A stretch of DNA of 63,830 bases, counting the filler, from Reclinomonas americana ATCC 50394 (Eukaryota), in assembly GCA_048213135.1 (NCBI GenBank). It is 17 parts of 17 records of this genome, joined end to end, with 100 filler letters (N's around TTAATTAATTAA, not from the genome) between each part and the next. Parts side by side here need not be neighbours in the genome. Positions count along the whole stretch, not along the records: positions 46,953 to 54,274 come from AFZH01016897.1; positions 54,375 to 62,691 come from AFZH01016898.1; 15 more parts are not named here. One strand, written 5' to 3'. Made by a program: the position numbers and the translations under genes. The notes below the pieces were generated by a model. It worked only from the letters and a program-made list of their open reading frames with translations. It made no database searches and had not been told where the DNA came from. Positions within the stretch are counted from its first letter, which is position 1. Every line of letters starts with the position of its first letter. Below are positions 14,355 to 63,635 of this stretch, piece by piece.

Positions 14355-14465
14355 GAGTCCCATGCTCGCCGCCGCTGACGACGTCGAAAGGAACAGTCTT
14401 TGGCTCTGCAGTGCTCCAGCAAGATTTTTGCCGAAGCATGTTGTTGTGCAAACAGACGTTCATTG
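14355..14465. repeat. Duplicated intergenic block of the WD40 array (second copy at about 13061-13180)
   Basis: Shared gagtccc...gctcgccgccgctgacgacgtcgaaagg...agtgctccagcaaga...tgccgaagc...tgttgtgca.acagacgttcatt. Confidence 0.85.
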
Positions 14466-14517
14466 AAATTGTTGACGAAGAGAAAAGAAAGAGTGCTGGC
14501 CTGTGGCCTCCAGCTCA

Positions 14518-15615: not shown

Positions 15616-15691
15616 TTGCTCGTGAAGCAAAGAGAATTCGATCGCGAAAGGCGGCAAGTGAAATTCCCGCGCGCTCTCTCTCTTGTCTCTC

Positions 15692-40014: not shown

Positions 40015-43000
40015 GAGTAGNNNNNNNNNNNNNNNNNNNNNNNNNNNNNNNNNNNNNNNNNNNNTTAATTAATTAANNNNNNNNNNNNNNNNNNNNNNNN
40101 NNNNNNNNNNNNNNNNNNNNTGTCGTCGCTGTTCGCCGACGAAACTCTCAACACCCTGCACTACGCCTCCCGTGCGCGCTACATTCGCAATGCCCCTGTA
40201 CGCAACGAGAACCCGAAGGATCGCTTGATCCGCCGGTTGCAGGAAGAGGTTTGCTGAGAGAGAGAGAGAGAGAGAGAGTGCCTGCCATTTATTCATGCGA
40301 GAGAGTCGCTGACGCCCCTTGTTGCAGAACAAGCGACTGAAGGAGGAGATTCAGTACTTGCGGCAGCTCAGCTCCATTACTGGCCCGAGGGGCGCTGGTG
40401 ACGGAGCCGGTGCATCGTCCAGTTGCGGCAATCTCTGGCAGTGCATTGCATACTCATGTCTATACCCTGACTGCTTTTGTTTCGAGCAGAGTCTGTGCTT
40501 GGTGACCTGTCGACTGCGGACCTGGAGGATGTCACCAACCGCTTGGTCGAGTCGGTGCAAGTGATCAAGGTGCGCCTTCTTTTGCACGCACTTGCCTGCC
40601 TCTCGTCTCCCTCACCACCGTGCAGGGCATCTTCGAGGTACACAAGACCCTCCACGAGTCGTTCGACACCATCACCGGCGAGAACGCGCAGCTGCAACGC
40701 TCCGTCGACGATCTCATGGCGGAAAACTACTCGCTCCGTGAGCGGCTCGACATTCTCGAGAGCGTACTGATGCAGCCCGACGACGACAGTGGCGGCGCAG
40801 GGCGGTCAGCAGATGCGTCGGCCCCCTCCGCTGTCAGCGTCGAGACCACGTCGGCGACGGCTGCGGCCGGTGGCGACGAATCATATGTCGATCCCACCAC
40901 TGTCGAGCACGATAAGAAGATTGCCGCGTTTCTGCAATATGTTGCGTCTCGCTTGCCTCCAGTCGCACTGTGTTGTTCCTCTGCTTCTGTTTCCGCACTC
41001 TCCTCCTGATTCTGTCACGCGTGCTCTTCCACACATCGTACCACGTCATTTTCTTCTCCTTTTTTTTCTTCTTCTTCTTCTCTCTCCATCTACTTTTTTC
41101 CCGTCTCCATTCCGTCTCTTTGCCTCGCTTATCTCTATCCCACTAAGTTCTGGCATGCACTACCTTCCACCTTCGATGTTTCTGCCACCTTTGGTCTTCC
41201 GCATCCTTCTGCCTCTTTTCCCCCGCTCGTTCCTTTTCCCTTTGTTCACTTCTCCTCCTTCCGCTCCTTTCTTCACTCCTTCTTCGTTACTCAATGCCCC
41301 TTGACGCTCCACATCCTTCGCCTCCGTTTTCTCACTCTGTTTCTCTCCACGTCTTTCATGAATTCACATCTCCACCTTCCAGCTCTTCTTCCTTCCACCT
41401 CGCTTTCTCCATCCCACTTCTTCCTGCCACCCTTGATCTTGCTTTGCAATTTCTCTCCACCGCCCGCTCCATTACTTTCCTCCCTCATGTCTTCGTTTCC
41501 CGATGTCTCACCACGCTGGACCTTTGCCCTCCGTCTCCCTCCGTTTCCTCAATTATTTTCCTCCATTGTCTTCCCACCCGTATCTCTGCCTCCTTTTCCA
41601 TCCATCTTTATCACACCTCCTGTCCTTTTCTCCCATCTTCCCCTCCCTTTCCTTTCTCTCCTCCCCTCACTTTACCCTCCCCCTTCCCTCCCCCGCAGTG
41701 GCGCGAGCAATACCTCCAAGACCTACAATCCCACCTGGAATCCATCAACGGCTCACCTTCAGCCACTCCAGTGCAAGCACCTTCCACCGACGCCCTGCAC
41801 GCGGCACTGAATCGCCACGTGCGCGAATTCCTGGGCGATGCCACGAAGCGCGGCATCATGCAGCGGGAGGTCGGCACGCAGACAGCCGGTTCGTCTCCTC
41901 GCCAATCACTAAAAAATGCTCTCCGTTATGCTGACCCACCGCCCTTGTCTCTCTCAGACGACGCCTCGCCGAATCTCGTGTACATGCAAGTCGGAGCGCA
42001 GCTCACGTCACCCAACGCCTCCACCACCTCGGCGTTCCAGTACCTCGAGCAGCGCCTCCCCGCTGGTCCACCTCCAGCGGCCGCCGCTGCGGCGTCCAGC
42101 GAGGGCACCACCGACGACGACGACAGTCAGCGCGTGGGCACGGCGGAGCCGGCGGGCCAGCGGCAGGCGCTGCGGCGTGACAATCTGCGACCGTCGCGCG
42201 ATCACGTGCAACGCCTGCATCGATCGCGCTCCACTTCACCAGCCGCCGACAAGGTGCTGGCCGAGTTGCAGTCGCCCAAGACGGGCGCCGAGTTGGCGGC
42301 CACAAACTCACCTCGCAAGTCGCCGCCGCGGAAACCCAAGACCCCGCAGCGCTCGCGACCACCCTCGCGACCGTCGTCGCCGGCCAAGCGTGGTGCGGCG
42401 GCGGCCGCGGCCGCCCTCACGTCGGTGATTGAGAGTGTGCCGAGTCGCACCCCTTCGCGGCCGACATCACCTCCGCCGGCTCCCAAGCCACCACCAGCCT
42501 CGTCACGCAGCAGTGGCGTCAAGTCGCCACTCCGCGCCAAGTCACCGAAGGTTTCGTCGAAAAAGACGGCCGCTGCCGCCGCCGCCGACAGCGCCGAGCA
42601 GTCGTCGCCGTCATTACCACCGGCACCGCCACCTCCACAGCCGCCTGCATCGGATCCACCACCGGCTGGCTCGCCAAAAGCGAAACGCACGGCGCGCCTC
42701 AAGTCACCAGTCGCTGCCGCGTCGGAGCAGCAGCAACAGCCACCGGCGTCACCGAATCGGTCGCGACCGACGACACCCGGCGCGCGCCACAAGAAGAAGG
42801 CAGTCGAGTCTCCGCAGGCGCTAGAGCAACTTCAGCAGCAGCAGCAACAGCAGTCTCCGGCATCGCCGAGTCAATCGAGGCCGTCGACTCCCGGTGGTGG
42901 TGGTGGCGGCGGCGGCACTCGCCCCAAGAAGAAGAAAAAGCTGGTGGATTCATCGCGCCCACACACACCGACGACCGCCTCTGCAGGCGCGAGTAAGAGT

Positions 43001-45788
43001 GCGGGTGTGCCAGAACATGGAGCCGTCGTCGTGGAGAAAGAAGAGGAGGTCGGCGACAATGCGACGGACTCCCCTGGTCGGAAGCGAGCAAGCAAGGCGA
43101 AGAAGAGCAAGAAACGAGCGGAGGCGAGTGACGAGACGACGGCAAAGAGCAGTGCTTTGCCGCACCTATTGGTTCCGCCACTGGATCTGGGCGCCACGTC
43201 GCCGTCCAGTGCATCGTCCACGTCGCGCTCACCATCGTCGTTTGTGGAGGGCGCCGCGCCTGCGGGTGCGGACAGTGACACGCGCGCCTCATCACTGAGT
43301 CCGCGCCATACTCGCCGGAGCCCGTCCCAGTCACCGCGATCGTCGCTGTCGCGCGATTCCATCTTGGCACCGCTGCAGCGCTCGCCCGTGGAACCTGTCA
43401 CGGATTCAACACACTTCAAGAAACAGCGACGGCGATCACCGTCGAAGCAGCGGCCGTCGACCGCCAACGAGGCAGCGGCGGAGGTCAATCACATGCTCGA
43501 GCAGCACCGACGACAGGAGCAGGAGGCGAAGCGGCAGCTGGCACTGGCCACGGCGCTGGCTCGGAGACGCAGGAAACAAGTGCGAGAACAGCAGCAGCAA
43601 CAACAACAACAGCATCACGGTTCTTCGCCACGATCCAAGCTGCGCGGCGGTGGCAAGCATCATGGGACGACCTCGCCCCGTCACGGCGCTGGTGGCGACG
43701 CGGCTTCGGAACTCATGGGCATTTTGAACACGTCGGGCATTGCCGGCCTGCTGGCACTCGTGTCGCAGGCGGCTGTCCTTGACGACGGACGACCACAGTC
43801 CGCGATTGGCGCGAGGACTTTGCACAATGGCAGTGGAAACGGCAGCATGTCGGCCCGCCCGCATACTGCCAACTCCGCCGTCAGTGGCATCGATCTCGGC
43901 ACCACGCCCGGCCTCAAGTCACCGCGCGGAATGCTGCAGGCGCAAGGCAGGCCCTCACATACGACGCCCACCGCTCCGCCACCGCCACCATCATCGTCGT
44001 CGGTCCGGCCGCGACGACCGAGTCACAGCAGCCAGACGCAAGCCAATGTGCCGTCATTACGGCTTCCTGTCATCAGCACCGCCCAACAGCATCGTGTGGA
44101 CATGCCTGGTGGCGCCGACGAGGACACAGCAATGTTGCAGCAGTTGTTGAACGAGCAACTGAGCCACCAGCGAAATCTGCAGGAACGCATGACCGAACGT
44201 GCACGCGCCTCCCTGCGCTCGCACAGTCCGCATTCGCGATCGTCGCGCAGTGGCGACGATTCCAGTCAGGAACCACCGGCCGCCGTCGTTGCCGCTCCTG
44301 TGGCCAGTCCCCGCCAAAATAGACCTCAGCGAAGTCTGTCGGCCCGACCTCGCCGCCACACCATCAACAGTGGCGACCGCAGCTCACCGAGCCTCAGCGA
44401 GCGGCCGCTGGTGGAGACCAGTGCGCTGCTCTCGCCGCCGCTCGAGACGCAGGGGTTGGACGATGAGCGCCTGCTGTCGGTTCCGCGCGGTCCCACACTG
44501 GCTCCCGCTTCTGCTCATCGAGTGGTGAGTTGCTTCTCATTTCCCGACACACAATCGAAGTGGAGAGTGACAAGAACGATGCTATGTGCACAGATTGCGG
44601 AAGCGATATCTCGGCGCATCAACGACCGGCCGAGCTCGACGCCGTCGCCCACCAGACCAAAACTACCATCGCCACCGCCGCCACCGTCTCACAGTGCGTC
44701 TGCCCCGATTTCTCCGTGACTCACACATTGTTTTGGTGCTCATCCTCGTTTGCAGAAGCCACCGCTGCCGAAGGTCCACTGCCGAGCGACTCGCCACTCC
44801 GAGCCTTCCGCAAGGCCGTGTCGCCGAGCGCTATCATGCGCACGGGAAGCACATCGCCGTCCAGCAACCGTACTCCGTCGCCCGTCACCAATGAGCTGAT
44901 GATGGTGCTCGGCAGTCGGAGAACGTCCGGTTCGCACTCTGGGTCCGTGTCGGCGCGCAGCATGAGCCCCGTCGATGGTTTGTGAGCACGCAGTTTGTAT
45001 CACTGTCCCACGCACACACGTCTCACTCACCTCATTGTGCAGCTCTCGGTCGACAGCGCAATCTAATGTTGCCACGACGGACCGACGCACAGTGGCAGCC
45101 ACCGTCGTTAGCCATGAGCGATCAGGCGCGCCGCAAAATGTTCCGCAAGCAAATGCCGCAGTACATGACGGACGCTGTGCAGCCGGCGCCGCCTCCACCA
45201 CCACCAGCCCCACCATACCTGTCACGACAGAATCGCGGAGCCGGTGCGGCGCAGTCGTCGCCATCGGTCATGAATCGTCCCAACGGACCGGCATCGCACA
45301 AGCCGCACTACACGCACAGCCGCCAGCTGGCGCGTCCCAGTTCGTCGGCTGCCATCACTCGCGGAGGAAACGGTGCCGGTGGCGGCGGCATCGGCAACGG
45401 CACGGATCTGGTGGCTCTCGAGGGTTTCATTCGCGGTCTGGGCGCACAAGTGGGCGGCGGTGGCGCTCCACCAAGTGGATCCCGTCGTTCAGCTGCTGTT
45501 GGTGGTGGTGGTGGTTCGGCTGCTGCCGCCTCCGCGTTTGCCAGTGCCTCGCCGTACAACAAGGCGTCGGCTCGCGGTCGCTCGCGCCCCGAGACACCCG
45601 TGTACGACGTCAACGCGAATCCAATGCTGGCCGTGCTGCAGCAACTGGCGAGCCGTGGAGGCGGTGATGGCATCGGTGGTGGCGCTTCGGCCGCGGCCAT
45701 GAGCAGCACCGAGGACCTGCTGGAGCTGCTGAATGAGCGTGCAGCCATGCGCAATGCGCAAAACCTGCAACAATCGCTGCCGCCATAG
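39779..45788 (+). CDS. Kinesin (kinesin-16/KIF12-like is the best guess) with a very long Pro/Ser-rich tail; most of the motor domain lies in the gap at 40021-40120
   Basis: ETLNTLHYASRARYIRNAPVRNENPKDRLIRRLQEE is the end of a kinesin motor plus neck and coil. Probable first exon 39779-39932; frame-consistent introns through to TAG at 45786-45788. Confidence 0.8.
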
Positions 45789-45831: not shown

Positions 45832-47451
<1,620 letters not shown>

Positions 47452-47534
47452 GATTCGCTGCGCGTGGAGGACAACTCTCGTTCATACGTAAACAAACAAT
47501 CATTAGTACATTATAAGTCCCTTTCCTCCCCAAT

Positions 47535-47939
47535 CTACTGCCTCTGCGCCAACAGCAGCTCCTCCAAGCGCTGGAGGCGCGCAGTGAGCGAGTTGATCTG
47601 CTGCTCCTGCTCGTGCAGCTTGCGGTTCTGCTCCTCAATGAGCGACGTCTGCTCGTTGACGGCCTCCACCAGCACCGCCGTCATGCGTGGGTAGTCGACC
47701 GTCAGCACGTCCTTGATGGGCGCGTTGTCCGAGGTCGACGTCACCATGTGCACCAGCTCGGGGAACACGCGCTGCACGTCTTGCGCCAGCACGCCAATCT
47801 CCAAGTGGTCCACCTCGATCTTGCGCTGAATGGTCTTGGCCGCCATCTCGTTCCACCGGTACTTGTAGGCGGTGATCTGGCGCAGGGAGCCGAGCACATT
47901 GTCGATGCGCGTGAGGTCGGTCTTGAGGCGCTCGTCGGA
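47535..47939 (-). other. Intramolecular chaperone auto-processing (ICA/Peptidase_S74) domain plus terminal coiled coil
   Basis: SDERLK (Ser-x4-Lys dyad), YKYRWN, EIGVLAQDVQRVFPELV, LTVDYPRMTAVLVEAVNEQ, then heptads to the stop codon. Confidence 0.93.
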
Positions 47940-50900
47940 CGAGTTGACGAGGTCGGTGTAGATGCGGTGCACGAGGCCAGTGCGCGTCTTCCAGAACGGA
48001 ATGTCGGCGTTGGTCATGTAGTCGGCCGTGTACAGCTGCACGTACGAGGCGTTGGTGGCCGGGCTGAACGACACACCGCGCTCCGCAATCATAATGGCAC
48101 CGGCGTCGGCGCGCAGGTCGTTCGTGAACGACGACACACCTGGCAACAAAAAAAGTCAGCAACACACATTTCACCTCTTGCGCCCTCCTCTCCCCTCCTT
48201 CTCCTCCCCCCTCCCCCCTCTCGTCTCCCCTCTCCCCTCTGCCATTGAAAACGCACCAGCAACCGACAGAGTCGCCGAAGCGTTGCTGAGGCTGACGTTA
48301 CCGGTCAGCGTGCTGACGCCGGCCACGGACAGCGTGCCGCCGAGGGTGGTGGCGCCGAGGTTCACCGTCAGCGTGTTGCTCGCCGAGATGGTCACGTTGC
48401 CGTTCAAGGTGCTGGTGTCCGACACGACCAGCTTGGCGCCGAGCGTGGCGTTGCCGGCCACAGACAACGTGCCATTCAGCGTGGTCACACTGCTCGTGCC
48501 GACGGTGAAGTTGAAGCCATTCGAGACGGCGACATTGTTGCTAAATGTCGAGGCGCCGCCAACCGAAAGCGTGCCCGAGAGCGCCGTCGCACCGGCTGTC
48601 ACACTCAGACCGCCGCCAAAGCTGGCGAGTCCAGTGGTCACTGTGAATGTGGCTCCCGTGCCGACAGTCACCGTGTTCTGCGAAGCAAGAGTGAGCAAAC
48701 AAAATCATGGCATCATCGTAGACTGCTGCTCCACAACGCAACATTGAGAGTGGCAACACCGGCCAGCGTGAATGCGCCAGCCATGGTGGTGGTGCCGTTG
48801 CCGACGACCAAGTTGACGCCAGGTGAAATGGTCACCGTGTTGCCAAAAGTGGAGGTGCCCGTCGCCGACAGGCTCGTCACCGTCGTCACGCCCGTGACGT
48901 TGACAGTGCCGGCAAAGGTGCTGGCGCCGTTGCCCATGGCAAAGGTGCGCGAGTTGCTGATCGTCACGTTGCCGTCAATGTTGGTCGAGCCGTTGACGGA
49001 CAGCGCGTTGTTCAAAATGGTCACGCCCGCCACCGTCAGCGCACCGCCAAAGGTCACCGCGCCAGTGCCCACAGTGAGCGTCGACGTTCCATTGATGGCC
49101 ACGTTGCCGGAGAAGGTACCTGACAGACAGACAATGAGACGAACAGCAATAGATAAAAAGAGATGTAATGGCTACGCACCCGCCGCAGTGGTCACACCAC
49201 CCGTCAGCGTCGCCAAACCGGTGACTGCGAGTGTGCCGCCGAGCGTGCTGGCGCCGGCATTCACGCTGAATGTGTTGGCGTTGAGCACCGCGAGCGAGCC
49301 GTCAAAGCTCGCGGCCTTGCCAGTAATCGAGCCCGTAAACGTGGACGTCAGACCGGTCACCGACAGAGTGCCGCCAATGGTGGTGGCACCCGTGGTCACC
49401 GTGAATGTCGAGCCGCCACCGACAGACACGTTGCCGTTGAATGTGGCAGCCTGAGCAACCAGGCTCGCGCTGAGGGTGGTCGCACCGGTGACGCCGAGCG
49501 TGCCGCCGAGAGTGGTGGCACCACCCGTGGCCACCGAGAAGCTGTTGCCGTTCAGCACCGCCAGGTTGCCGTCAAAGTTGCCGGCCTTGGCAGACAGCGC
49601 ACCCGACAGCGTCGTCAGGCCAGTGACGCTCAACGAGCCACCGAGCGACGTCGCGCCAGTGCCGACCGTAAACGTGTTGGCATTCTGCACCGCCACTGCA
49701 CCATTAAAGGTGGCATCCTTGGCGGCGACAGTGGCCGCAAATGTGCTAATGCCGCCCACCGACAGCGTTCCAGACAGCGACGTGGCACCCGTCGACACCT
49801 AACGCAGAGGAAAACAAGGAGGTGAGTACACGAACGCGGATGGATACAAAGAGTGTGCGTGTCTGCGCAAAGTTCGCACGCACCGTCAAGGTGGCGCCCG
49901 TGCCCAGAGTCACATTGCCGTTGAGCGTGCTGGTGCCGGCGACAGTCAGCGTGCTGGAGAGGGTTGTGGCCAGTGTCACGCCGAGGGTGCCGCCAATGGT
50001 GGCGTTGCCAGAAACGAGCGACAAGTTGATGCCCGTGTCGAGGGTGACCGAGCCCTTGAACAGCGACGTCGAGTTGACCGTGAGCGCCGCGAGCGTGGTC
50101 GCTCCCGTGACCGTGGCCGTGCCGCCAACCGTCAGATTGCCCGACGTCAGCGCCAGATTACCTGCCGACAGGGTAGCGCCGCCAGAGAATGTCGCCAAGC
50201 CGGCCACACTGAGGGTGCTCGACAGCGTGGCGGCACCCGAAATGGCCGCCGTGCCCGACAGCGTCGTTGCACCACCGACAGTCAGCGTGTTGGTGCCGCT
50301 CACCGTCACATTGCCGCCAAACGTCGACGCCGCACCCGTCGATACACCGCCGGTGAGGGTGGCCAGGCCGGTCACACCGAGTGTGCCGCCAAATGTCGCC
50401 GCACCGGCACCGACAGAGAAGGTGCTGGTGGCACCCGTCACTGCATACGAGTGAAGAAAAGGTGAGTAAAAAAAGATTCTATGGAAGAGAATGAGAAGGA
50501 TAAATGCACCGGCGACAGCTCCCGTAAACGTCGCCGCGACACCATTGAGCGAGCCACTAAGCGTCGTCAAACCGCCCACCGACAGAGCGCCAGTGAGGGT
50601 GGAGGCACCGGCGACCGACAAGGTGCCAGGTGTGCCCGTCACAGCCAGCGAGCCGTCGAATGTGGCCGCCTGTGCAAAGTACACGATAAGTGAGATACTC
50701 GGGAAAAAAACTCACAGACAAACAGACAACAGTAAACAAACAAACCTTGCCCGACACCGCCTGCAGGGTGGTGGCGCCAGCGGACACTGTCAGACCGCCA
50801 CCCAGCGTGACCAGACCAGTGCCGACAGTGAGCTGTGAGGCACCAGAGAGCGTCACGTTGGCGGCAAACGTAGAGGCGCCGCCAATCGACAACGTGCCCG

Positions 50901-53900
50901 TTGCCGAGGCGTTGCCCGTCACGCTGACACCACCGCCGAGCGTCGTCAGACCCGTGCCGACCGTGAACGTGTTGGCGTTGGAGACGGCCACGGCGCCGTT
51001 GAACGTGGCACCGACGCCACTCAGTGCCGCCGACAGCGTTGTGGCACCAGTCACATTAAGCGCGCCGCCGAGCGTCACCAGTCCGGCGCCCGTCGTCAGC
51101 GTCGTGGTCATGCCGACAATCGACACGTTGCCATTCAACGTGGTGGTACCATTGGCAACCACGCTCGACGCAAACGTGCTGGCACCGCCAACAGACAGCG
51201 AGCCCGTCATGGTGGTGGCTCCAGTGCCAATCGACACCGCCTGCCCATCAGACACCGTCACCGGTTTCTGGAAGAGCGCGGCACCGTTCGTGGTCAATCC
51301 GCCAGTCAGTGTGGCCACGCCGGCCACCGCCAGTGTGCCTCCGAGGGTGGTGGCACCAGTGCCGACCGTCAGCGTGCTCGTACCAGTAATCTGCGCAGAG
51401 TTATGTGAGTAATCAAGCAATCAAAACATCAAAAAAAATCAAAACAGTACGCACTGAAACGTTGCCGCTATGCGTGGCACCGGCACCGACAAACGGTTGG
51501 CTAAACGTGGCCACGCCGCTGACCAACAGCGTGCTCGACAGAGTGGTAGCGCCGCCGACCGCCAGAGTGTTGCTGCCGAGCACAGTCACGGCCGCACCGA
51601 AATCGGCACCGCCCGTCAACGTCGACTTGCCCAGCACCAAGGCCGTGCCGCCCACAGAAATGGCACCCGAGGTCGAGAAGAGACCGGTGCCGAGTGTGAG
51701 CGTGTTGGTGCCCGAGATGCTCACATTGTTGTTCAGCGTCGCAGTACCAGTGACGACAATGTTGCCGGTAAACGTCGAGGAACCGCCGACACTCAGAGCG
51801 CCAGTCAAGTTGGCGGGTCCGCCCTGCACACGCAGCTCGGAACCGGTGCCAACTGTCACCGCGCCCGTCAACGTCGAAATGCCGCCCACCGACAATGTCG
51901 TAGACACCGTGGCAGCGCCAGTCACCGACAAGCCGCCGCCGAGCGTGCTCAGACCAGTGCCAGTGGTGAAGGTGCCCGAGCCGCTAATCGACACATTGCC
52001 GTTGAAGAGCGCGTTGCCGCCGACGGTCAGCGTGGTGCTCGCAGTCACGGCACCGGTCACGGTCAGAGTGCCGGCCATGGCCGAGGCGCCCGTGCCGACC
52101 GTGAACGTGGCCGCATTCGCCACCGTCACGTTGCCGTTGAGGGTCGAAGTGCCCGTCACAGCCAGCGAGCCACCGAGAATCGTGGCACCGGTACCGACGG
52201 TGAAATTGTTGGCGTTGGTGATGGTGACCGAGTTCTGGAATGTGACCGGCTGGCTGGCAGTGATTGTGCCGGAGAACGTCGACGCGCCACCAACACTGAG
52301 CGAGCCCGTCAGCGTGGTGGAGCCGCCGGTCACCGTCAGCGGCTGGTTCGTGGACAGCGTCACCGCACCGTTGAAGGTGGCGGCGCCTGTGGTCAACGAC
52401 GTCAGCGTGGTGATGCCAGCCGACAGGGTTCCGTTAATGGTGCACCCTCCGTCGCCAATGGTCACGGCGTTGCCGTTCGACACCGTAATGGCGCCGTTGA
52501 AACGCGAAGTCGAGTTGGCCGTCAGCGCACCATTCAAGGTCGCCACACCAGCCACCGTCAGTGCACCACCGAGGGTGGTGGCACCCGTGCCCACTGTCAC
52601 CGTGTTGGTGCCCGACACACTCACACTGTTGTTGAAGGTGCTGGCGCCTGAGACAGTGACAGCGCCGCCGAGTGTGGTCACACCACTGGTGACCGTCAGC
52701 GAAATGCCCGTGTCCACCGTCACATTGCCCTTGAAGAGCGACGTGCCATTCACCGTCAGCGCACCGCCAAGCGTCGCAGCGCCGGTGCCGGTGGTGAACG
52801 TGCTGGCCGCGCCAGAAATGGACACTGACGAGCTGAACGTCGATGTGCCACCAACACTGAGCGTGCTCGTCAAGGTGGTGGCGCCCGTCACCGCCAGCGT
52901 GCCGCCCAGGGACGAGGCGCCAGCTCCGACAGAGAAGGTGGTCGTCATGCCGCTCACCGACACGTTGCCGTTGAAGGTGGCGGTGCCGTTGGCAATCAGA
53001 GCGCCAGTCAGCGTGCTGCCACCAGTCACCGCCAGCGTACCACCAAGCGCAGTAGCGCCGCCGACTACGGTAAACGTGCTCGTGCCAGTGACACTAGTGT
53101 TGCCGGCAAACGAGGCCGTAGAGGACGTGGCAAGTGTCGTCAGCGTGGTTGCGCCGGTCACCGACACGGCGCCCAAGAACGAGCTCAGTCCAGTGCCCGA
53201 GGTGAAGGTGTTGGCACCGCTAATGACCACCGCACCACCCAAGGTGGTCGCGCCGGCCGTCGTCAGTGCCTGCACATTGGTGGCGCCGGCCGACACCGTC
53301 AGACCACCACCAAGAGTGGTGAGACCAGTGCCGACAGTCAGCGTCGACGGAGACACAATGTTGACGGGGTTGTTGAAGGTGACGGATCCAGAGAAGCTGG
53401 TGGCGCGCAGAGTTGTGATGCCCTGCGCCTCGAAATCGCCCAACAGCAACACCTTGCCAGTGCCAACATTGACCGTGTTGGTGCCGGAGACCGACAGCGT
53501 ACCGTTCAGCGTGGTAGCACCGGCCACCGTCAGCGAGCCACCCAGTGTGGTGGCGCCAGTTGCCACCGTAAACGTGGAGCTGTTGGTAACCAACGTAGCG
53601 CCACGGAACTCCGCCGTCGAGGCCGCCGTAAAGGCACCGCTAATCGTCGTCACGCCCGAGGTCACCGAGAGGCCGCCACCCAGTGTCGTCAGACCGGTAG
53701 TGGTGCTGAGGGTGGAGCCGCCAAGCAGAGCAACATTGCCGGAGAAGTTGGCCGCGTTCGCCGTGAGCGTGCCAGTCAGAGTGGTCGCGCCCGTCACCGA
53801 GAGGGAGCCACCGAGTGAGGTGGCGCCCGTGCCCACCGTGAGAGTGTTGGCACCGGAGAACAGCACGTTGCCGGTGAACGTGGTGATGCCGCCAACCGAC

Positions 53901-56900
53901 AGCGTGCCCGTCAGCCTGGTGTTGCCCGTCACCGTCAGATCGCCGCCAAGAGCCGTGGCAAACGTGCCGCTGACTGTCAGCGTGTTGTTGATAGTCGTCA
54001 CACCGTTCAGAGAGGCTGTGCCGGCGGCCACCAGCGGACCGTTAAAGGTCGAGGTGCCCGTGCCCACCGTGAAGGAGAACAAATTGGCAATCGCCACGTT
54101 GTTGTTGAACTGCGACGCGCCCGATACGGTGAGCGGACCGCCAATCGTCACCGTGCCGGTGCCCGTGGTCACCGTGTTCGTGCCCGACACCACGAGGTTG
54201 CCGTTGAGGGTGGACACACCACCGACAGTGAGCGTGTTGCTCAGCGTTGTGCCGCCCGTCACCGCCAGAGTTGANNNNNNNNNNNNNNNNNNNNNNNNNN
54301 NNNNNNNNNNNNNNNNNNTTAATTAATTAANNNNNNNNNNNNNNNNNNNNNNNNNNNNNNNNNNNNNNNNNNNNAAACCGGTGCCCACCGTCAGCGTGTT
54401 CGCATTCGACACATTCACGTTGCCGTTGAACGTGGAGAGGCCGCCGACCGACAAGGCGCCGGCAAGAGTGGTTGTGCCGGCACTCACAGTCACGCCGCCA
54501 CCAAATGTGGCGAGGCCACCGCTCACCGTCAGCGTGCGCGGCGACGGGAGAGTCACGTTGCCGTCCAAGGTCGAGGCGCCAGTGACCGCCAAGCCAGCGC
54601 CCAGCGTCGTCAAGCCGCCCGCCACCGTAAACGTGTTCGTGCCCGTCACAGTGGTGTTGCCGGCCAACGATGCACCACCGCTGGCCGTCAGCACTCCAGT
54701 CAACGTTGTGGTGCCGGCCACCGACATGTTGCCCGACACCGTGGTCAGACCGGTGCCAGTGGTCAGCGTGGAGCCACTCAACAGCGTCATATTGCCGCCA
54801 AACGACGATGTTCCCGTGACTGCCAGCGCACCGCCGAGAGACGTCAGGCCAGTGCCCACAGAGAAGGTGCTCGTGCCCGTCACCGAGGTGTTGCCGTTGA
54901 GCACGGTGGCACCAGTGACTGTCGCACCACCATTGGCAGACAAGGCGCCAGTGAGAGTGGTGGTCGACCCGACCGACAGCGTGCCGGCCACAGAAAGGTT
55001 GTTGCCGAGCGTGGCTGCGCCCGTCACATTGATGGGACCACCAAAAGTGGCCGCACCCGTGCCCATGGTCAACGTGTTGGTGCCGGAGATGGAGAGACCG
55101 CCGTTCAGCGTCGCCAGGCCAGTGACATTCAGCGCGCCGCCAATGTTGGTGGTGGAACCCATGCCAATCGTGATGGTGCCGTTGAAGGTCAGCGTGCCCG
55201 TCACCGTCAAGTTGCCGTTCACCGTCGAGTTGGTGGCGAAAATGTTCAACGTGCTCACACTGGCGTTGCCGATCGTAATGGCCGTCGAGGTCATTTGCAC
55301 GTACTTGGTGGCGCCAATGTTGAAGTTGTACTCGGGTGCCGTCAACTGCAGCGCGTTCTTCAACGTGCCGCCACTGCCGGTGGCGCCAAGCAAAATGATA
55401 ATGTCGCCGCCGTTCACCGTGCTCGACCGCGTCAGCGTAATGGCGTCGTTCAGGCCATCAACATTCACTGTGGACACTTGCGTGCCCGACTGGCGTGCCT
55501 CCAAGAAAATCGAGTCTTGACCGTACACAAAGGACTTGACCGCGCGGGCCGTAAACGTGGCCGACTTGGTGGTACCATTGGCGGAAATCTCCACCGCATT
55601 GGTGGCATACAAGTTGGTGTTGGTGGTGGTCGCCGTCATGTCCACGTTGCTGCTGAGGTTGAACACGGTGGTGCCGGTGGCGCTGAGGACGCTGAACGAG
55701 TTGGCGCGCACCGAGTGGGCACCCGACACCTGCTGCGTCCACGACTGGCCAAACGCAGTAAAGGTCGTCGTGGCGGCCGCAGTCGTGCCGCCGAGCACCA
55801 CAGTGCCGGCAGTGTTGCCGAGTGTCAACGTGGTCGGCGTGTGCGAATGCGCCAGACCGGTGAAGGTGGCCGAAGTGGAGCTGGGGGGGGAGGAAGAATG
55901 AGGAATTGAAGAGGGAGGATGTCACACACTTTCTCTCTCTGGTGTGCACAACAAACCTCGTCAAGATAAACGTAGGTGCGAGAATCTCGGTGGTGCCCGC
56001 CGAGGTGTCGAGGCGCACATACGAGCCCGTGAGGGAGATGCTCGGTGTACCGGCCATCACCAAGTCAGAGCTGATGGCCACCGTGTTGCCCTGCACCGTG
56101 GTGGTCGGACCGAGAGTGGCGCCAGACTTGAGCGTGCCGAGCGCGAGCGAGGTGGTCGAGCCGGCTGTGTTGCCGATCTTGACCGCACCGGCGTCGAGAG
56201 TATACGCAGTGCTGGCAGCGCCGCCAACCACAATGGTGGGTGCGGTAACTCGCAACTGCGTGGCAGTGGTGAAGCCCACATCGAGTGTGATGTTGCTGGT
56301 GTTGAGCACGGCGGAGTTGTCGCCCAGTTGCAGACGACTCGTGTCCGTCGCCACCGGCGTCACCGACATTTTGATGACGCCACCAGTGGCGCCAGTGGAA
56401 CGCACCGTCACATTGCGACCGAGCGCCGTAATGCCGTCAATCTGCGTGCCGCCCGCAGTCTGCATGTTCAGCGACGTCACCGCGTTCAGGTTGACTGCGT
56501 TCGACGAAGCACTGATTGTGCCGACCGTGGTCGACGCCACCAACGAGATCGAGGTGGTGGCCGGTTCGCCAGCCGTCGTCGAGCCAATCGTGTGTGTCAC
56601 GGCCTTTACGGCAGCGTTGCCGTAGATCAGAGCATTCAGCGAATCGCCGGCCACGGTGATCTTCGAGGTGGTGGCACTCGAGCCCGAGTTGTACTGGCCA
56701 ATGAACAGGTTGCCAGTTGGCTGCACATTCATGGAGGCTGCACAGGAGGCGGAAGGGGTGAGCAACAACTAGAAAAGGGATGTGGCATGGCACAAAAAAC
56801 GCAACTCGGGAAGAACTGGTACGAATTACCGGTAAAAGTGGCCGTGGTAGCCACACCCGTCAGCGCCATCGTGAACGGACCGGTAGACATGTCCAGCGAC

Positions 56901-59900
56901 GTGGCCGTGGTCACCACCGCCTTCGGCAGCGTGATGGTGCTTGACAAGGCGGTGCTCGCCGCCGTAATGGCCACCGTATTGCCACTGATGCTCACCGCCG
57001 GTGCGGCGGAGCCGAGTGTAATGGTGGCACTCGCCGCCGTGCCGAGGTTGAGGGCCGTGCCGGCATTCAAGTTGATGGTTCCCGGGGCGGTGGTGGCATC
57101 AATGGTCACCGTCGGCGCCTTCAGTGTCGCCGTGTTGCTGGTGCTATTCAGGGTCAGCGACAGCGCCGTGGCCGAGTCCACCAGCTGGATCAAGTTGGTC
57201 GACATGGTGAGCTTGGACGGTGTGGCGGCATTGCCCTGCTCCAGCGTAATCGACGAGGTGGGATTGTCGGTCGCCTTGAGCAGAATCGTCTGACCGCGGC
57301 CTGTCAGCTGCTTCGTCTGAGTGGTCGAGTTGCCGCTCAGTGTCACGCTGTTGGCGCCGTACAGCGACATGTCGTAGGTGCTCATCTGGATGATGTGTGT
57401 GGCCAGCGTCACGCCCGTGTTGACGGTGAACGACGACATTGTCAGCGAGCCAAAGGTAGCCGACACCGCATTCATCGAGTAGGCACCCTGCGAGAATGGA
57501 CAAAAAGAAAAAGGAGTGTTGGAGGAGAAAACTAGAAGCGGGGGGGAAAAAAAAGGAGCTCACCGACAGCGTGCCAGTCAGGGCGGTACCCAGAATGTTG
57601 AGGGCGCTGGTGGCCGAGCCGAGGGCCAGCGTAGTAACCGGTGTGAGATTCAGCGTGGTCGGGTTGTGTGTGTGGGTAGTACCGCCCACAGTGGCCGTCG
57701 TGGCTGTCGCCGTCAGCGTACCGATGGTGGCGGTGAGGCTGGTGGCCGACGTGAGGGTCAGCGTCGGCAGCACCAGCGTCGACGCACCACCGGCCGTGAC
57801 CGAAATTGACGTGGATGCAACAATCAGTGAGCTGACAAGCGAGTTGCCGATGCGAATCGTGTTGGTCAGCGAGTTCCCGAGCGAGTCCAGCGTGAAACCA
57901 AGGTTGAGCGACGTGCCGTCAAATACAGTGGTCGTGCGACCATACAGACGAACGTCGGAGCACTCGCCGTAGAACGGCGCCACAGTGCCACCATTGTCCA
58001 TGCGGAAAACGCACGTGCCGGAGCTCGTGCCACGAGTGAGCACAAAGGTGCCCGGGGTACCCGGTGTGCTCGTGGCCGTCAGTCGCATGCTGACCTGATC
58101 AGTGCCGGTGCCAGCCAGCACATTCCACGACGTGCCGGCGGCCACCGTGCCGGCGCCCAGGTTGGCGGTAAAGGTCGGAATCGCACCGGTGCCACCGAGG
58201 GTCAGCGACGTGGTTGCATTGTGCACGAGCACCGGCGAAGTCGACGTCATGGACGTCCCCGACGTGATGGCCAGCGTGTTGGTCGTGCTTGCGCCCTGCG
58301 TGCCGACGACAACGTCGGGCGCAGAGAGCACGGCAGCGGTGCCAAAACGAGCGTCCAAGTTCGCCGCACGCATGTTGACATTGGTGCTGGTGGCCACGCC
58401 GAGCGAAATGGCTCCCGAGGTGGAGACGGCCAGCGACGCCAGGTTCATCGCATACGCGCCGCCGGTAAAGGTGGCAGAGGTCGCCGCCGCCAGCGTGTAC
58501 ACCGGCGACGTGATGGTGCTTGTGTCCGAGGTGACCGTCAGCGTCGGCGCCGTGAGGGTGGCCGAGCCGGCACCGCCGAGCGTGCCAATGGTCGCCGTCA
58601 GTGTGCGCGACGTCAATGTCGTGGCAGTCAACGATGCGCTGCCAATGTTGATCGCCGTCACAGTCGACTGACCGAGACGCAGTGTGCCCGGCGTGTCCAC
58701 CGTGAGGGTGTTGAGCGCTAGCAGCGAGGCCTGCGGGGCACACACAGACCATAGAGATCAGCTACCGTGAGGGGGGAACAAAATAAGGGAGAGACGAACC
58801 GAGAGGTTGCCGGTGGAGGAGCCGAGAACCAGGTTGCCGTGAGTGCCAGTGCCGACACCTTGGCCGGCACGCACAGTCAGGTCGGCACCGTTGGCGTTAC
58901 CGGCGGCCGCCGGACGGTCGGGACGCTGCACGGTCAGAGCAACAGCGAAGTCGTCGTGCAGTTGCAGCGCATTGCCGCCACCTCGCATGCTGACAATCTT
59001 GCCAGCTTGAATGTCAATGTTGCCATCGATCTGTGCCACAAAAGAAAGAGTGAGGCGATGAACACGCACATGGCACAGGGGCGCGCCGACGAAACTGTCG
59101 TCTGGGGCGAGTAGATGCGCGTCAACGTGGAGGCACTTGTGTTGCCAATGCTGACTTCGCTGGCCACAAACGTGCCGATCTGCACTTTGCCATTCGTGGT
59201 CGTTCCAGTGCCAGCGTCAAAGCCACTGCGAGATAAAATGGAGAGTCAACATCAGAACAGTGACAAGAAAAGGGAGAAAGAGGATGACAAGTGGCACGAC
59301 GCAACATGTCACCACCGACAGTGCCAGCAGTCGATTGGCCACGGTAGTAGGTCGGCGAGCCGGCAAAGGTGTTGGTCGTCTGCGTTTCGCGCTCCATCAC
59401 AAAGGTCTTGGAGACGACGCCACCACCATTGTTGCCGAGTGCCACGCGGTGAGTCGAGTCCAGCGCGCTGAGACCCGGATCGAGGCGCACAAACGACTGC
59501 GCCTGCAGGGTCAGCGTGGTCGCGGAGACCACCGACGTGGAGGTGAAGCCGCCAGAGAGTGTGGTCAGGCCGGTCACAGTCAACGTGCTGCCCAGTGTCA
59601 CACCCTGGTTCACTTGCAGAGTGCCGAGGACTGTGGTCAGTGAGCCGGCGCGACTCAGATTCACTCCAGTCACTGCACTGGCGCCCATGGTGACACTCTG
59701 TATAGGCATGAATAAAAATGAGTGACATGACTAGAAGGAGAATAATCAAAAAGGACAACACACCGCTGACGAATCAATCGTCATTGCCGCAGTGCTCGAC
59801 AGCGCCATGGTCGTGGCGGCCGTCACGGCAATGGTGGACGCGCTATTGTTGGTGTATGAGGTGGAAGTCAGATTGAGGGGTCCCGCGAGCAGTTGCATCT

Positions 59901-62502
59901 GCGTGTTTCCCACAATGAGCGCCTACGGCTAAACAAGCGCACATCCAACGGCAGACAACATCGCACCTGCGCACGAGTGGCCGCCACCGGTCCGGTCGAC
60001 AGCGTCAAGATGCCGGGTGTCACCGTACCGCCATTGTTGTGCTGAGCACTCTCGATACGGAGCTCTGGCGGCGAGTTAACGCCGTCATACACACTGGCGT
60101 GACGAATGATCGCGACAGTGGCTTGCGCGCCCACGCGGATAATGGTGTCGTCCGAGTAAATGCTGCTGGGCGACGTGTTCGGCAGAGTGGCGGGCGTGCT
60201 CGATCGCAGCAGCAGTGCGCCAGCGAGCTACAGCAAGTGTACGAGGTGAACAACACGAGACGTGTGCGCAATAGCAGGCAAGAGACGTACCGACAGAGTG
60301 GTACCCGTGACGCTCACAACGGCGGCATTGTGGCCGATTGAAATGGCCGTGGTTGGCGACGGGCCAATGAACACGGAGCCATTGGGGGTACCGACACCAC
60401 CAACAATGGACCTGTTAAGAGGGTGAGTGAGACACAAGCATCAAAAGCATCCTCAGCATCATCACACATCAACACTCACACATCGCCACCGGCCGCCGAG
60501 CTGTCCTGGCCGAGAATCTGCAACGGCTTGCCTGCCGCGATCGAAGTAACCGGCTTGAACACGTACGACACCGTCGGCGCACCGCCAAACAGCAAGGATG
60601 AGTTGAACGGCGTCAGCGTGAGACCACCGGCTGCCGAGGACAAGCCCGGCGCCACCGCCGTCACGGTAAACGTGGCAGTCTCCGACACATTCATCTGCGC
60701 ACTGCGTGTGAGAACGGGCGGAAGGGGGAAAGAAACAAAGTACGGATGGCTCGCTCACGCACCGGTCCTCTGACATTGGTCGGCTTGGTTGTGGCCGCAA
60801 GGTTGACGGCGGTCAGTGTCGCGTCGACCGTACCGATATTGATGGTGGTCGCATCGAGAGCCACCGTGTTGCCTGTCACCGACACCGCTTGGCCATCCAT
60901 GGACACCGTATTGGTGGCACGAGCTGCGCCACCGAGGAACAGGGTGGAGCTGGATCCGGTGCCAGGTGCAACGCGCAGGTTCACTGCGGCGCTGGCACCC
61001 ATATCCGGCGTCTGCAGCAGGAAGGGCGAGGTGGCCAGCGGCGTGCCATGAATGGTCAGGGTGGCGCCACTTGAAATCAGCGTGCTCGCCACCGTCACCG
61101 TGCTGGAGAATGTGGCCGCGCCAGTCACCTACATCGGAGGGAGGAGAGCAGTGAGTTCACGCAAATCACAACGAGTCTCTCGCCCTCTCTCTTCTTCTCT
61201 TCCCTCTTGTACAACTCACCGCCAATGTCGACGACGCCGTCAGTGCACCGGACACCGTGGTACCAGTGACCGGCGACATGTTGATGGTGGCCGAGGCGGA
61301 ATTACCAATCTGAATCAGATTGGCGGCAATGGTGCCAATCAGCACGTTGCCATTGGTGCCAGTGCCGCCGCCGGCGAGACCAGCGTCGAGCAGCATGTTG
61401 CCGCCGTTGTTGTTGAGGCCGTTGGCGTTCTGGCCGCGGATGCGGAATATGTCGCCCGAGCCGGCAGCGGTGCGATCAGTGCGAATCAGGTCAATGGGCG
61501 AACCACTGGTGCCCGTGATGCTGACGCGACTGGAGAAGGGCGCCAGCGCCAAATCGCCCGCCGCCGTGTTGATCAACGGCGTGGTGATGGAGGTGTTCGC
61601 CACTGCCGTGTTGACAGTCAGCGTGCCGCCGAGGAAGGTCACCGACTCGTTCACAATAAAGGAACCGAGCACGCGTGTGACCTTGGTCGACAAGCCGAGC
61701 TGTACCTCGCCGGCGCCAGTGCCCTGATTGATGCTCACGTTGCCAGTGTTGCTGACCAGCGAGGCATTGCCGTCGGAGACCATGGAAAGCGTCTTGGAGA
61801 TGGTCTGGATCGAATTGGTGCGATAGAGTGCGGCGCCGAGAACGAGATTGCCGTCGGTACCACCCGACGTGCTCTGCCCGGCCTCCAGTCGCAAATCAGC
61901 GCCCGCGCCAGCCGTGCTCAGCCGGCGGAGCGTAAATGTGTTATTGGTCGAGTCGCCAAGGATAAGCGCCTGCTGGACCGGCGATTGCACGGCACCAGTG
62001 GAGAGGATCAGCGTGCCACCAATGGTGGCCGTCGACGACGTTGACACAGTGGTGGCCGACACATTCACCGCCGTGAACGAATTGCTGTTGACGACGGTGG
62101 GCGTGCTGGCCGCGCCAATGTTGACCGAGGAGCTCGAAGAGCCAATGTTGATGGAGCCGTTGCCGAGTGCGCCCACACCGCCGTCCAGCACCAAGTTGCC
62201 GCCGGTCGAGCCGAGCGACTGCTGACCAATAATGGTGAGCGTCGTGCCGGCCGTGTTGATCAGCGGTCGCGTCAAGGTGAAGGCGGTGGTGTTGTTGCCC
62301 AGAGTGGCAATGTTGGTGAACGACTGCAGCTGCAGATTGCCAGCCGCCGTGGTCACCAGCGGCGTGGTGACGCTGAGTGCCGCCGTCACTGGGCCCAACA
62401 CGTTGAGGGTGACGCCGGCCAGCGGCAGTGTGACTGCCGAGTTGCCGAGTTGCATAAAGGCCTGATTCGAGACCATCAAGTTCAGCAGCACCGGGGCACC
62501 AG
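47535..62502 (-). CDS. Giant Gly/Thr/Ala/Ser-rich beta-strand-repeat fibre protein with a C-terminal intramolecular chaperone (Peptidase_S74) domain; 5'-partial, about 4,500 aa visible
   Basis: Twenty exons joined in frame by 19 GT-AG introns (approx. 61129-61219, 60695-60762, 60412-60479, 60228-60290, 59923-59966, 59698-59763, 59227-59305, 59031-59095, 58731-58799, 57488-57563, 56738-56829, 55881-55956, 51391-51453, 50670-50745, 50442-50508, 49799-49883, 49120-49178, 48678-48742, 48140-48256). The linker at 54275-54374 interrupts one exon within the same repeat type. Confidence 0.88.
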
Positions 62503-62541
62503 CTGCGAGTGGCGAGGGGAATGTGGTGAGTCACCGCGTTC

Positions 62542-62653
<112 letters not shown>

Positions 62654-62903
62654 TACGGTACGGTACGGTACGGTACGGTACGGTACGGTACNNNNNNNNN
62701 NNNNNNNNNNNNNNNNNNNNNNNNNNNNNNNNNNNTTAATTAATTAANNNNNNNNNNNNNNNNNNNNNNNNNNNNNNNNNNNNNNNNNNNNTCTCTCTCT
62801 CCCTTCCCTCCCTTTCCTCCCTTCCTTCCTCCTTCCGTTCCCTTTCTCCCTTCCTCCTTCCGTTCCCTTTCTCCCTCCCCTCCCCTCTCTTCTTCATGCA
62901 CAG

Positions 62904-63635
62904 TGGAACCCCCCTCTCGCACCGTCCGCAACATGCTGGCCAAGCTGCTCGTGCGCTGCGCCAACCAGGCCGCCGGCTGCACCGAAGTCGTGGCCGTGTC
63001 GCAGCTGAGTGCCCACGAACGCGACTGTGTATTTGCGACGCTGCGCTGCTCCAACGCCGGCTGCTCGACGACGGTGACGGGTGGGCAGGCCGCGCTGCAG
63101 AGACATCGGGAGACCGAGTGTCAGTTTGAGGTGCGCAAGGCAATCAATCGTGTGTGCCTTGTTGTTGTTGTTGTTGTCTCACTCCCCTCACAGGTGGTCA
63201 CCTGCGCCGGCGGCTGCGGCTCGACACTGAGGCGATTGGACTTTGAGGGCCACTCGTGTGTGGAGGAGCTGAGAACCAAGGTCGGCATCCCCCTCCTACT
63301 TCGCCTTGTCGCCTCTCGCCCTCACTCTCACACGCACGCAGCTGGACATGTCCATGGCACGCGAGCGCGCACTACAGCAGCGCGTTGAGGAGCTGACGAG
63401 CATGCTGGCCAGCGCCGTCAATGAGCCGGCACAAGTCAGCACCGTCACCATGAGTGTGTCCGACCTGAAGATGCAGCTCCGTCGCATGGGCGTGTCGGAG
63501 GCGGAGATTCGGGCGTGTGTGGAGAAGCGCGATCTGCACGAGTTGCTGATGCGGAGACGAAGTCAGCAGCAGCAGTCGTCGTCGTCGTATCACCATCATG
63601 CGAGGTCGGCGCCGCCGGACTCGCCACCGCCGGCG
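62904..63635 (+). CDS. TRAF-type zinc-finger protein (RNF41/TRAF-like) with coiled coil and a SAP-like helical motif; partial at both ends
   Basis: VRNMLAKLLVRCxNxxxGC...LSAHERDC, CSNAGC...HRETEC and CAGGC...HSC zinc-finger repeats; VSDLKMQLRRMGV...CVEKRDLHELL. Donors at 63131, 63281 and 63636. Confidence 0.8.

Follow-up and report, generated by a model that had tools for sequence, protein, structure and literature searches.

An intron-rich gene of Reclinomonas americana predicted to encode a giant fibre protein with a phage-type shaft and a C-terminal Peptidase_S74 domain

The ICA domain of the Peptidase_S74 (S74) family is found in phage tailspikes and tail fibres and in the eukaryotic MYRF transcription factors, and its mechanism is established for both: the domain trimerises, folds the shaft upstream of it and then cleaves itself off (PMC3742443; PMC8326128; the four papers cited here were available in part, and statements drawn from them are limited to those parts). 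Members of the endosialidase type include the K1F endosialidase, the GA-1 neck appendage and the long tail fibre of phage S16 (PDB entry 6f45). Polinton-like viruses integrated in protist genomes are reported to encode modular fibres of up to 3.9k amino acids (aa) with a single C-terminal S74 domain; this holds for viruses from most eukaryotic groups, the fibres contain Laminin_G_3 (often), collagen, adenovirus-fibre or BppL_N modules, and their genes stand beside capsid and replication genes (PMC12220804). Here we describe a gene, referred to below as the fibre gene, in a 63,830-nucleotide (nt) stretch of DNA of Reclinomonas americana ATCC 50394 (GenBank assembly GCA_048213135.1; the whole stretch is called the window). 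It lies on the minus strand at 47535-62502 and is distributed over two contigs, at 46953-54274, which holds the C part, and at 54375-62691, which holds the N part. The feature is real and lies well above chance. With modest confidence, we regard it as a cellular gene into which a phage-type fibre module was captured and whose product is a beta-helical fibre that trimerises and cleaves itself. This view is built on the structure of the gene, the domain with its catalytic dyad, the homology that the module shows to phage-type fibres and the host-like splice signals.

The last exon of the fibre gene encodes 200 aa, and the Pfam search that a preliminary description of this locus had proposed as a check returned Peptidase_S74 (PF13884) at 57.4 bits against a cut-off of 22 (E = 1.8e-15), covering positions 1-58 of the 58-position model at 47748-47939. 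From its catalytic Ser to its end the predicted domain occupies 47538-47939, as aligned to 6f45 and to MYRF (PDB entry 7dc3), and it is followed by a TAG stop codon at 47535-47537. The SDERLK and GVLAQDV motifs described earlier were located on the minus strand at 47939 and 47795, respectively. In an alignment of 40 sequences, consisting of the fibre protein and 39 relatives, residues S67, D68, K72, G115, A118, Q119 and P126 of the exon are invariant, and R70, between S67 and K72, is conserved in at least 90%. S67 (codon 47937-47939; 40/40) is the expected nucleophile and cleavage residue, and K72 (codon 47922-47924; 40/40), five residues after it, is its putative dyad partner. The same i/i+5 spacing is found between S578 and K583 of MYRF, the catalytic dyad that MYRF shares with the endosialidases (PMC3742443), and the Ser of the fibre protein aligns with the SSD..K motif of 6f45. 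Judged by its sequence and catalytic residues, the protein belongs to the Peptidase_S74 family.

After the Pfam region, a predicted helix (47538-47690) runs through six heptads with V, I, L, I, L and L at their a positions and can be aligned with the helix of MYRF, which in MyRF assembles into a triple coiled coil that drives trimerisation (PMC8326128). The alignments with 6f45 and 7dc3 reach exon residues 185 and 194, respectively. A coiled coil had previously been listed as an additional element of the protein, but the two alignments, the heptads and the MyRF parallel identify it as the C-terminal helix of ICA itself, and a separate coiled-coil domain was rejected. The fragment from S67 to the end, whose release is predicted, has 134 aa and a calculated mass of 15.6 kDa.

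Searches with the last exon recovered mostly phage fibres. Thirty-five PHROG families match it, almost all of them tail-fibre C-termini (best E = 1.8e-22), as do 355 phage records by tblastn, with identities of at most 34% and, among the matches listed, tail-fibre or hypothetical annotations. In the PDB, the exon matches the phage long tail fibre 6f45 (E = 1.7e-6), at 31.3 bits, better than MYRF 7dc3 (E = 2.8e-4), at 24 bits. The best relative among 15,378 representative hits has an E value of 1.5e-18 and 34% identity; none of these hits reaches 1e-30, and no close relative was found among IMG/VR viral contigs or metagenome contigs. Cluster look-ups for 20 hits yielded a single organism name, Tribonema minus. 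In the Atlas, the exon lies closest to clusters from bacteria and from Uroviricota. ICA lies no more than 30 aa from the C-terminus in 141 of the 150 best relatives, which is the arrangement of fibres and not that of MYRF. The earlier proposal of a complete ICA domain of the fibre type agrees with this terminal position and with the invariance of S67, D68 and K72.

Compared with the endosialidase-type members, the fibre protein has the same Pfam match, i/i+5 dyad, Arg, heptad helix and terminal position, but it has no sialidase or other enzymatic head and is encoded by a eukaryotic, intron-bearing gene. With MYRF and MrfA it shares the eukaryotic nuclear gene, the ICA domain and the catalytic dyad. 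Unlike them, it has no NDT80-type DNA-binding domain (no Pfam match in the exons and long open reading frames [ORFs] scanned), and it ends at the ICA helix, with no transmembrane segment or tail after ICA; on these comparisons of sequence, the fibre protein is not a MYRF. MYRF had been named as the well-characterised eukaryotic context of ICA, which is incomplete, given the S74-ended fibres of polinton-like viruses (PMC12220804).

The likeness to phage-type fibres extends well upstream of ICA. Residues 1032-2040 of the C part align to residues 2116-3254 of P0036, a protein of 3,254 aa, and so run to its last residue, with 34% identity over 1,226 columns and a score of 202 bits. The C part scores 207 bits against residues 757-1695 of a second protein, P0022, and identity across the P0036 and P0022 comparisons is 32-34%. 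As controls, reversed P0036 and P0022 gave 28.9 and 40 bits, and five shuffles of each gave at most 23.1 bits. When ICA was removed, the repeats alone scored 148 bits vs 23.5 bits reversed. PHROGs 36281, 697, 5070 and 7964 match both the repeats of the fibre gene and P0036/P0022: P0036 has phrog_529 ("tail fiber protein") at its start, followed by phrog_697/36281/5070/7964 repeats and S74 families, and P0022 consists of Laminin_G_3, repeats and S74. Because the alignments are collinear, the repeats score on their own and the PHROGs are shared, we consider shaft, tip and chaperone to be homologous to phage-type fibres as a whole module, and not by the chaperone alone. The tip, a non-repeat stretch of ~66 aa (47940-48139), is collinear with the pre-ICA stretch of P0036 and by analogy would form the C-terminal end of the mature fibre. 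The phage or bacterial origin suggested in the preliminary description is strengthened by this collinearity of repeats, tip and ICA with giant S74-ended fibres.

Relatives of P0036 are found on 32 IMG/VR contigs. The one neighbourhood of such a relative that was examined (L003) contains a baseplate hub/lysozyme gene, several tail-fibre genes and 2OG-Fe(II) oxygenase genes, a gene set that identifies it, by sequence, as a T4-like myovirus. At 7169-24707 of L003, giant tail-fibre ORFs of 1,257, 772 and 2,812 aa stand in a row with the 2OG-Fe(II) oxygenase genes between them. An IMG/VR locus with a P0022 relative (L001) carries a terminase-like ORF and a tail-fibre match. The P0036-type phage fibres and the fibre protein thus have in common 11-12-residue xLxVTGxTTLxx repeats, the order of repeats, tip and terminal ICA, and ~1,000 collinear residues. 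They differ in setting: the phage genes are intronless and, in L003, lie among baseplate and tail genes, whereas the fibre gene has 19 introns and, by scaffold, cellular neighbours. Its N-terminal 2,140 aa are also unrelated to the phrog_529 part of P0036.

The periodic beta-repeat region occupies 48258-54274 on the C-side contig (minus strand, ~1,870 aa, with six introns within), where it is defined by its periodicity, by PHROGs 36281/697/5070 and by the homology to P0036/P0022, and 54375-55216 on the N-side contig (minus strand, ~280 aa), where it is defined by periodicity. In total, the periodic part comprises at least 2,150 residues. At a lag of 45, residue identity reaches 0.242, where composition alone predicts 0.136; lags of 89, 44, 33, 12 and 6 also give peaks. 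A repeat of six or 12 residues over more than 2,000 residues had been described before; the period and the extent hold, but the dominant period is 44-45. The repeat unit has 11-12 residues, xLxVxGxxTLxG, and is arranged in groups of three or four, with super-periods of 33 and 45 residues. No DNA-level tandem repeat was found in the coding region, so the repeats are not a collapsed or recent array.

A repeat exon of 940 aa has 38 matches among proteins of 1,646-4,700 aa, nine with Bactofilin and seven with Peptidase_S74. A search of 50,697 phage records, run with low-complexity filtering, gave no match to it, and a single repeat exon has none in IMG/VR viral contigs. The only named eukaryote among the 38 matches is Tribonema minus, whose protein KAG5191284.1 (P0020) carries similar TVGTGATxLGG-type repeats; it differs in consisting of fn3 and repeats over 1,925 aa with no S74, and its likeness to the fibre protein (E = 6.5e-23) is confined to the repeats. 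PDB sequence searches with N-terminal, middle and 940-aa repeat exons gave nothing better than E = 0.065.

For fold prediction, a repeat exon of 206 aa was aligned with 20 other repeat stretches of the fibre gene and modelled as a monomer by AlphaFold2, which returned an all-beta structure with a predicted local distance difference test score (pLDDT) of 65.5 and a predicted template modelling score of 0.67. Foldseek found no match to this model in the PDB at E <= 0.001. In exhaustive structural alignment the best match was the Vag8 passenger (Z 16.4, root-mean-square deviation [rmsd] 2.9 A over 206 residues), followed by HMW1 (Z 16.0); other single-chain beta-helix matches were VacA p55, tapirins, EtpA, pertactin and phage tailspikes (Z 13.9-14.2). 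Across these adhesins (autotransporter passengers and two-partner-secretion exoproteins) and tailspikes the values span Z 16.4-13.9 and rmsd 2.4-3.3 A over 182-206 residues, in a comparison of folds alone with 7-17% identity, a model of moderate confidence and a repeat class, the beta-solenoids, that readily gives high Z-scores; the fibre protein has no autotransporter or two-partner-secretion domain. The model suggests a beta-helix or solenoid and no finer class.

At 4.8 A per turn or rung, the 2,150 periodic residues would form a shaft of ~41-57 nm if a turn takes 18-25 residues and of ~90 nm if a rung takes 11-12. The whole mature chain would measure at most about twice that, ~180 nm, if the N-terminal half is built alike, and any repeats lost in the gap between the contigs would add to it. 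These estimates replace an earlier one of a few hundred nm, which had assumed six residues per 4.8 A.

The gene model was obtained with a dynamic programme that scores codons and GT..AG signals, and three intron read-throughs were corrected by eye. It contains 19 complete GT-AG introns of 44-117 nt. Once spliced, the gene is free of stops over 2,067 codons in the C part and 2,417 in the N part, or 4,484 codons in 21 exons; the N part was counted after 52 low-complexity codons had been dropped, and 4,484 aa is a minimum size. The single frame of about 4,500 aa with 19 introns reported before is confirmed in its introns and open codons but not in its continuity across the spacer at 54275-54374. 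Retention of an intron breaks the frame by a stop or frameshift in 19 of 20 candidates (18 of 19 if one doubtful candidate is left aside). Acceptors are YAG in 20/20 candidates, donors are GTGCGT, GTGAGT or GTTGCGT, and a CTNAY motif lies 8-45 nt 5' of the acceptor in 16/20. The introns have a GC content of 0.49 vs 0.63-0.65 in exons. A GTTGCGT-type donor is found in three introns of the fibre gene and in the intron of a neighbouring gene for an fn3 membrane protein. The introns and splice signals are host-like, and the introns fall at varied positions within the repeat unit, which indicates that they were not copied together with the repeats.

Codon usage was compared with that of other genes in the window. 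GC content at third codon positions (GC3) is 0.78 for the fibre gene as a whole and rises to 0.94 in its last exon; the fn3 neighbour has 0.78-0.79, and a pool of five other nearby ORFs has 0.66. In relative synonymous codon usage (RSCU), the repeat part of the fibre gene correlates with the fn3 gene at 0.82-0.84, the parts of the fibre gene with the five pooled ORFs at 0.61-0.70, and its N and C parts with each other at 0.92. ORF length by itself is weak evidence here, because open frames of as many as 978 codons occur on the antisense (plus) strand too; three antisense ORFs have no PHROG match, whereas minus-strand exons do match.

The introns on the C-side contig, all on the minus strand, are at 48140-48256 (117 nt, GTGCGT..CTGAC..CAG, between the last repeat exon and the exon for tip and ICA), 48678-48742 (65 nt, GTTGCG..CAG), 49120-49179 (60 nt, GTGCGT..CAG), 49799-49883 (85 nt, GTGCGT..TAG), 50441-50509 (69 nt, GTGCAT..TACTCAC..CAG, in frame without a stop and recognised only by its signals and composition), 50670-50745 (76 nt, GTTTGT..CAG) and 51391-51454 (64 nt, GTGCGT..CAG). 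Those on the N-side contig are at 55881-55956 (76 nt, GTTTGT..CAG), 56738-56805 (68 nt, GTTGCG..CAG), 57488-57563 (76 nt, GTGAGC..CAG), 58731-58799 (69 nt, GTTCGT..CAG), 59031-59095 (65 nt, GTTTCG..CAG), 59226-59305 (80 nt, GTTGCG..CAG), 59698-59763 (66 nt, GTGTGT..CAG), 59923-59966 (44 nt, GTGCGA..TAG, the shortest and least certain), 60228-60290 (63 nt, GTACGT..TAG), 60412-60479 (68 nt, GTGAGT..CAG), 60695-60762 (68 nt, GTGCGT..CAG) and 61129-61219 (91 nt, GTGAGT..TAG). The doubtful candidate of the gene model is at 62462-62534 on the same strand.

The N-terminal ~2,140 aa (55217-62461, minus strand, 12 introns) form a non-periodic region rich in Thr, Gly, Ala and Ser. Its first ~1,060 aa consist of four mutually related modules (Smith-Waterman, z 4.2-9.6 vs 30 shuffles), each with the motif GQ..GGxLxLxxG..NGxVxIG, which is present in 0/214 other proteins compared; internal BLAST of the N-terminal part gave no rows. 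No homologue of the N-terminal exon was found among 7,997 scored candidates of 726-2,070 aa, nor any metagenome locus, and no Pfam family passed its cut-off in a search of 15 exons at E <= 1. The Atlas leads for this exon are hypothetical proteins of Chlorophyta with a score of 0.92, for which recognition is below the reliability level. In composition, the whole chain has 19.8% Thr, 14.3% Gly and ~4% charged residues, with 85 NxS/T sites.

At the 5' end, position 62502, given earlier as the start of the feature, proved to follow directly on an AG acceptor at 62504-62503. The first in-frame ATG past an upstream in-frame stop is at 62474-62476 (minus strand) and is a candidate start codon. Since a good acceptor with ACTCAC precedes 62502, a start further upstream is considered as well: 62503-62691 (minus strand) may be the 3' part of an intron running off the contig, with (GTACC)n (GTC)n (CT)n followed by ACTCAC and a CAG acceptor, and the branch-like ACTCAC motif and its distance before 62502 resemble those of other introns of the gene. 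The start is possibly the candidate ATG at 62476 or else one in additional 5' exons that fell into the gap; a divergent ORF on the next contig leaves scant room for such exons.

Based on the mechanism described for other ICA proteins, we propose that a nuclear, spliceosome-dependent gene of a GC-rich eukaryote encodes a very charge-poor fibre subunit of at least 4,484 aa, whose C-terminal half, a run of beta units with a short tip and a C-terminal ICA, may have descended from a phage-type tail-fibre module. The 11-12-residue units would fold as a parallel beta-helix or solenoid, and three ICA domains would associate via their C-terminal helices, by analogy with endosialidase, phage fibres and MYRF, and so set the register of the three beta-structured shafts upstream. 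After assembly, the Ser-Lys dyad S67/K72 would cut at the Ser and release the C-terminal fragment, and the product would be a kinetically stable trimeric fibre of some tens to less than 200 nm. The N-terminal ~2,140 aa, which may consist of lineage-specific modules, would form its proximal, anchoring or cargo end. Trimer formation, cleavage, the shape and length of the fibre and its cellular rather than viral use are the predicted parts of this scheme. More tentatively, it may be that the eukaryote captured a complete fibre module, fused ~2,100 residues of its own to it, gained introns and now builds from it a self-maturing trimeric fibre for its own use, for example as an extrusome thread, a surface hair or an adhesin.

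Several observations weigh against a cellular fibre gene as modelled here. The gene model and its splicing are predicted from DNA alone, and the frame is not traceable across the spacer at 54275-54374. Both contigs of the gene carry only the fibre gene and microsatellites, and its linkage to host genes is by scaffold alone. The N-terminal ~2,140 aa have no relatives in Pfam, PHROG, PDB or sequence searches, and AlphaFold2 run on a 414-aa N-terminal exon as a single sequence gave a pLDDT of 37.8, which is unusable; the moderate confidence of the repeat monomer model counts here too. There is no signal peptide or membrane segment (the top 19-residue hydropathy, 1.81, falls at an exon junction), and, with more than one candidate N-terminus, an extracellular location is not supported. 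Finally, S74-ended fibres of this order of size are typical of the protist-integrated polinton-like viruses (PMC12220804), and genes of endogenous giant viruses can hold host-type GT-AG introns (PMC13692296).

The last two points bear on a reading that we consider unlikely, in which the gene is that of an integrated eukaryotic virus (a polinton-like virus, a virophage or a giant endogenous element) or a very recent capture from one, and its product a virion attachment fibre. The fibre protein resembles polinton-like-virus fibres as a very large modular protein in a eukaryotic genome with a single C-terminal S74, as in a viral fibre, and P0022, one of its two best whole-module relatives, has exactly the combination of Laminin_G_3, repeats and S74; with only the fibre gene on the two contigs, the true neighbours are out of view. 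It differs from those fibres in having none of their Pfam modules and in its 19 introns: the introns mentioned for polinton-like viruses in the source are group I only, with no spliceosomal ones among them (PMC12220804). The endogenous giant virus described has host-type introns in 61 of 506 genes, with 2.5 per intron-bearing gene, far fewer than the 19 found here in ~15 kb, and in that account introns mark latency genes and not the virion structural genes, which lie in a virulence module (PMC13692296). No viral family, and thus no capsid, packaging ATPase, integrase or polymerase of a viral element, was found by Pfam in 86 other ORFs scanned in the window, which are tied to the fibre gene by scaffold linkage only; the claim that phage genes are absent nearby holds to this extent, and the eukaryotic flanks asserted with it depend on the scaffolding. 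In IMG/VR, no close relative was found with the S74 exon or with a repeat exon, and the terminase-like and tail-fibre matches of L001 and the baseplate hub/lysozyme and tail fibres of L003 point to tailed phages and not to eukaryotic viruses.

A further reading, in our view quite unlikely, concerns the assembly. The window is made up of 17 contigs. Between them stand 16 identical spacers of 100 bases (N44 + TTAATTAATTAA + N44), spread over 3611-62791, and any feature that spans a spacer is scaffold-linked only. One of them (54275-54374) lies inside the repeat region and stands for an undefined length; with the gene on the two contigs that it joins, continuity of the frame is not demonstrable and an undefined number of repeats is lost. 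The scaffolder may have put two paralogous genes side by side, in which case the S74 protein would be known from its last 2,067 aa and the N part of 2,417 aa would come from another repeat protein. Repeat-rich paralogues are a frequent cause of mis-joins, the junction lies inside near-identical repeat types, and Tribonema minus provides an example of a eukaryotic protein that carries these repeats and lacks S74. Against this, both parts lie on one strand in the order expected of a single gene, the same repeat type is found at the facing contig ends, and the codon usage of the parts is near-identical (RSCU r 0.92). Mis-scaffolding would alter the size of the protein and not its nature.

That the gene was transferred long ago and is now a functionless relic in decay, as might be argued for a gene known from DNA alone in GC-rich, stop-poor sequence that readily yields long open frames, the antisense strand included, is highly improbable in view of the 4,484 codons that are open across 21 exons once introns are removed, the retention of every ICA position invariant in the 40 aligned sequences, the intact intron signals and the strong GC3 bias. 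Bacterial or phage contamination was rejected owing to the introns.

Composite microsatellites in inverted orientation lie on both sides of the fibre gene, at 46953-47165, (CGTA-like)(CGT)n(CT)n, and at 62540-62691, (AG)n(ACG)n(GTACG)n. Contig ends in the window fall in microsatellites or repetitive coding sequence, and the bracketing microsatellites may for that reason be ordinary intergenic DNA that breaks the assembly. Pfam families found in the other ORFs of the window include two WD40 ORFs, ZZ, fn3 and coiled-coil families. The gene with the codon usage closest to that of the fibre gene lies at 5084-10006 on the minus strand and encodes a large Thr/Ser/Ala-rich fn3 protein (E = 5.9e-26) with a single C-terminal membrane segment; it consists of two ORFs split by the intron of ~88 nt with the GTTGCGT donor. 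Two adjoining ORFs of 433 and 475 aa at 13216-15945 (minus strand) encode WD40 beta-propellers (E = 3.4e-74 and 3.9e-65) and may be a tandem pair or parts of a single gene. At 20362-32151 (plus strand), a coiled-coil gene of great length, or a family of such genes, extends over several contigs, with several contig breaks inside it and near-identical stretches at contig starts, those at 24889 and 25999 having a repeated segment in common. On the plus strand there are also a 43-aa piece at 40123-40251, at the start of a contig, that by its motif reads like the end of a kinesin motor and has no Pfam match, after it an ORF of 1,190 aa at 41147-44716 with 67% GC and no Pfam family, and, divergent from the fibre gene, an ORF at 62930-63388 with Sina and TRAF-type zinc-finger scores of 29.5 and 24.3 bits, both below their cut-offs.

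Reuse of phage parts by eukaryotes has its textbook example in the ICA domain, which to our knowledge has so far served them solely as the cleavage switch of MYRF-type transcription factors. What is new here is the setting: the gene has 19 spliceosomal introns with signals like those of the host, and its module is fused to a large N-terminal half that is lineage-specific. Fibre shaft, tip and chaperone occur side by side in one nuclear gene rich in introns. No cellular S74 fibre gene with introns is described in the literature searched, a scope outside which subscription journals and UniProt-type entries lie, and similar unannotated eukaryotic genes may exist. Should the gene prove viral, a eukaryotic virus would have a fibre gene whose intron density is without a counterpart in the available parts of the cited papers (PMC12220804; PMC13692296). 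If the organism does build a fibre of its own from the captured module, the ICA mechanism would for the first time be seen in cellular use outside MYRF, and this would be the first case in which a whole fibre, and not the chaperone alone, has been domesticated. A cellular gene of this kind would mean that eukaryotes can take over whole structural modules of tailed-phage virions, and its sequence would open a way to study a protein fibre of very large size.

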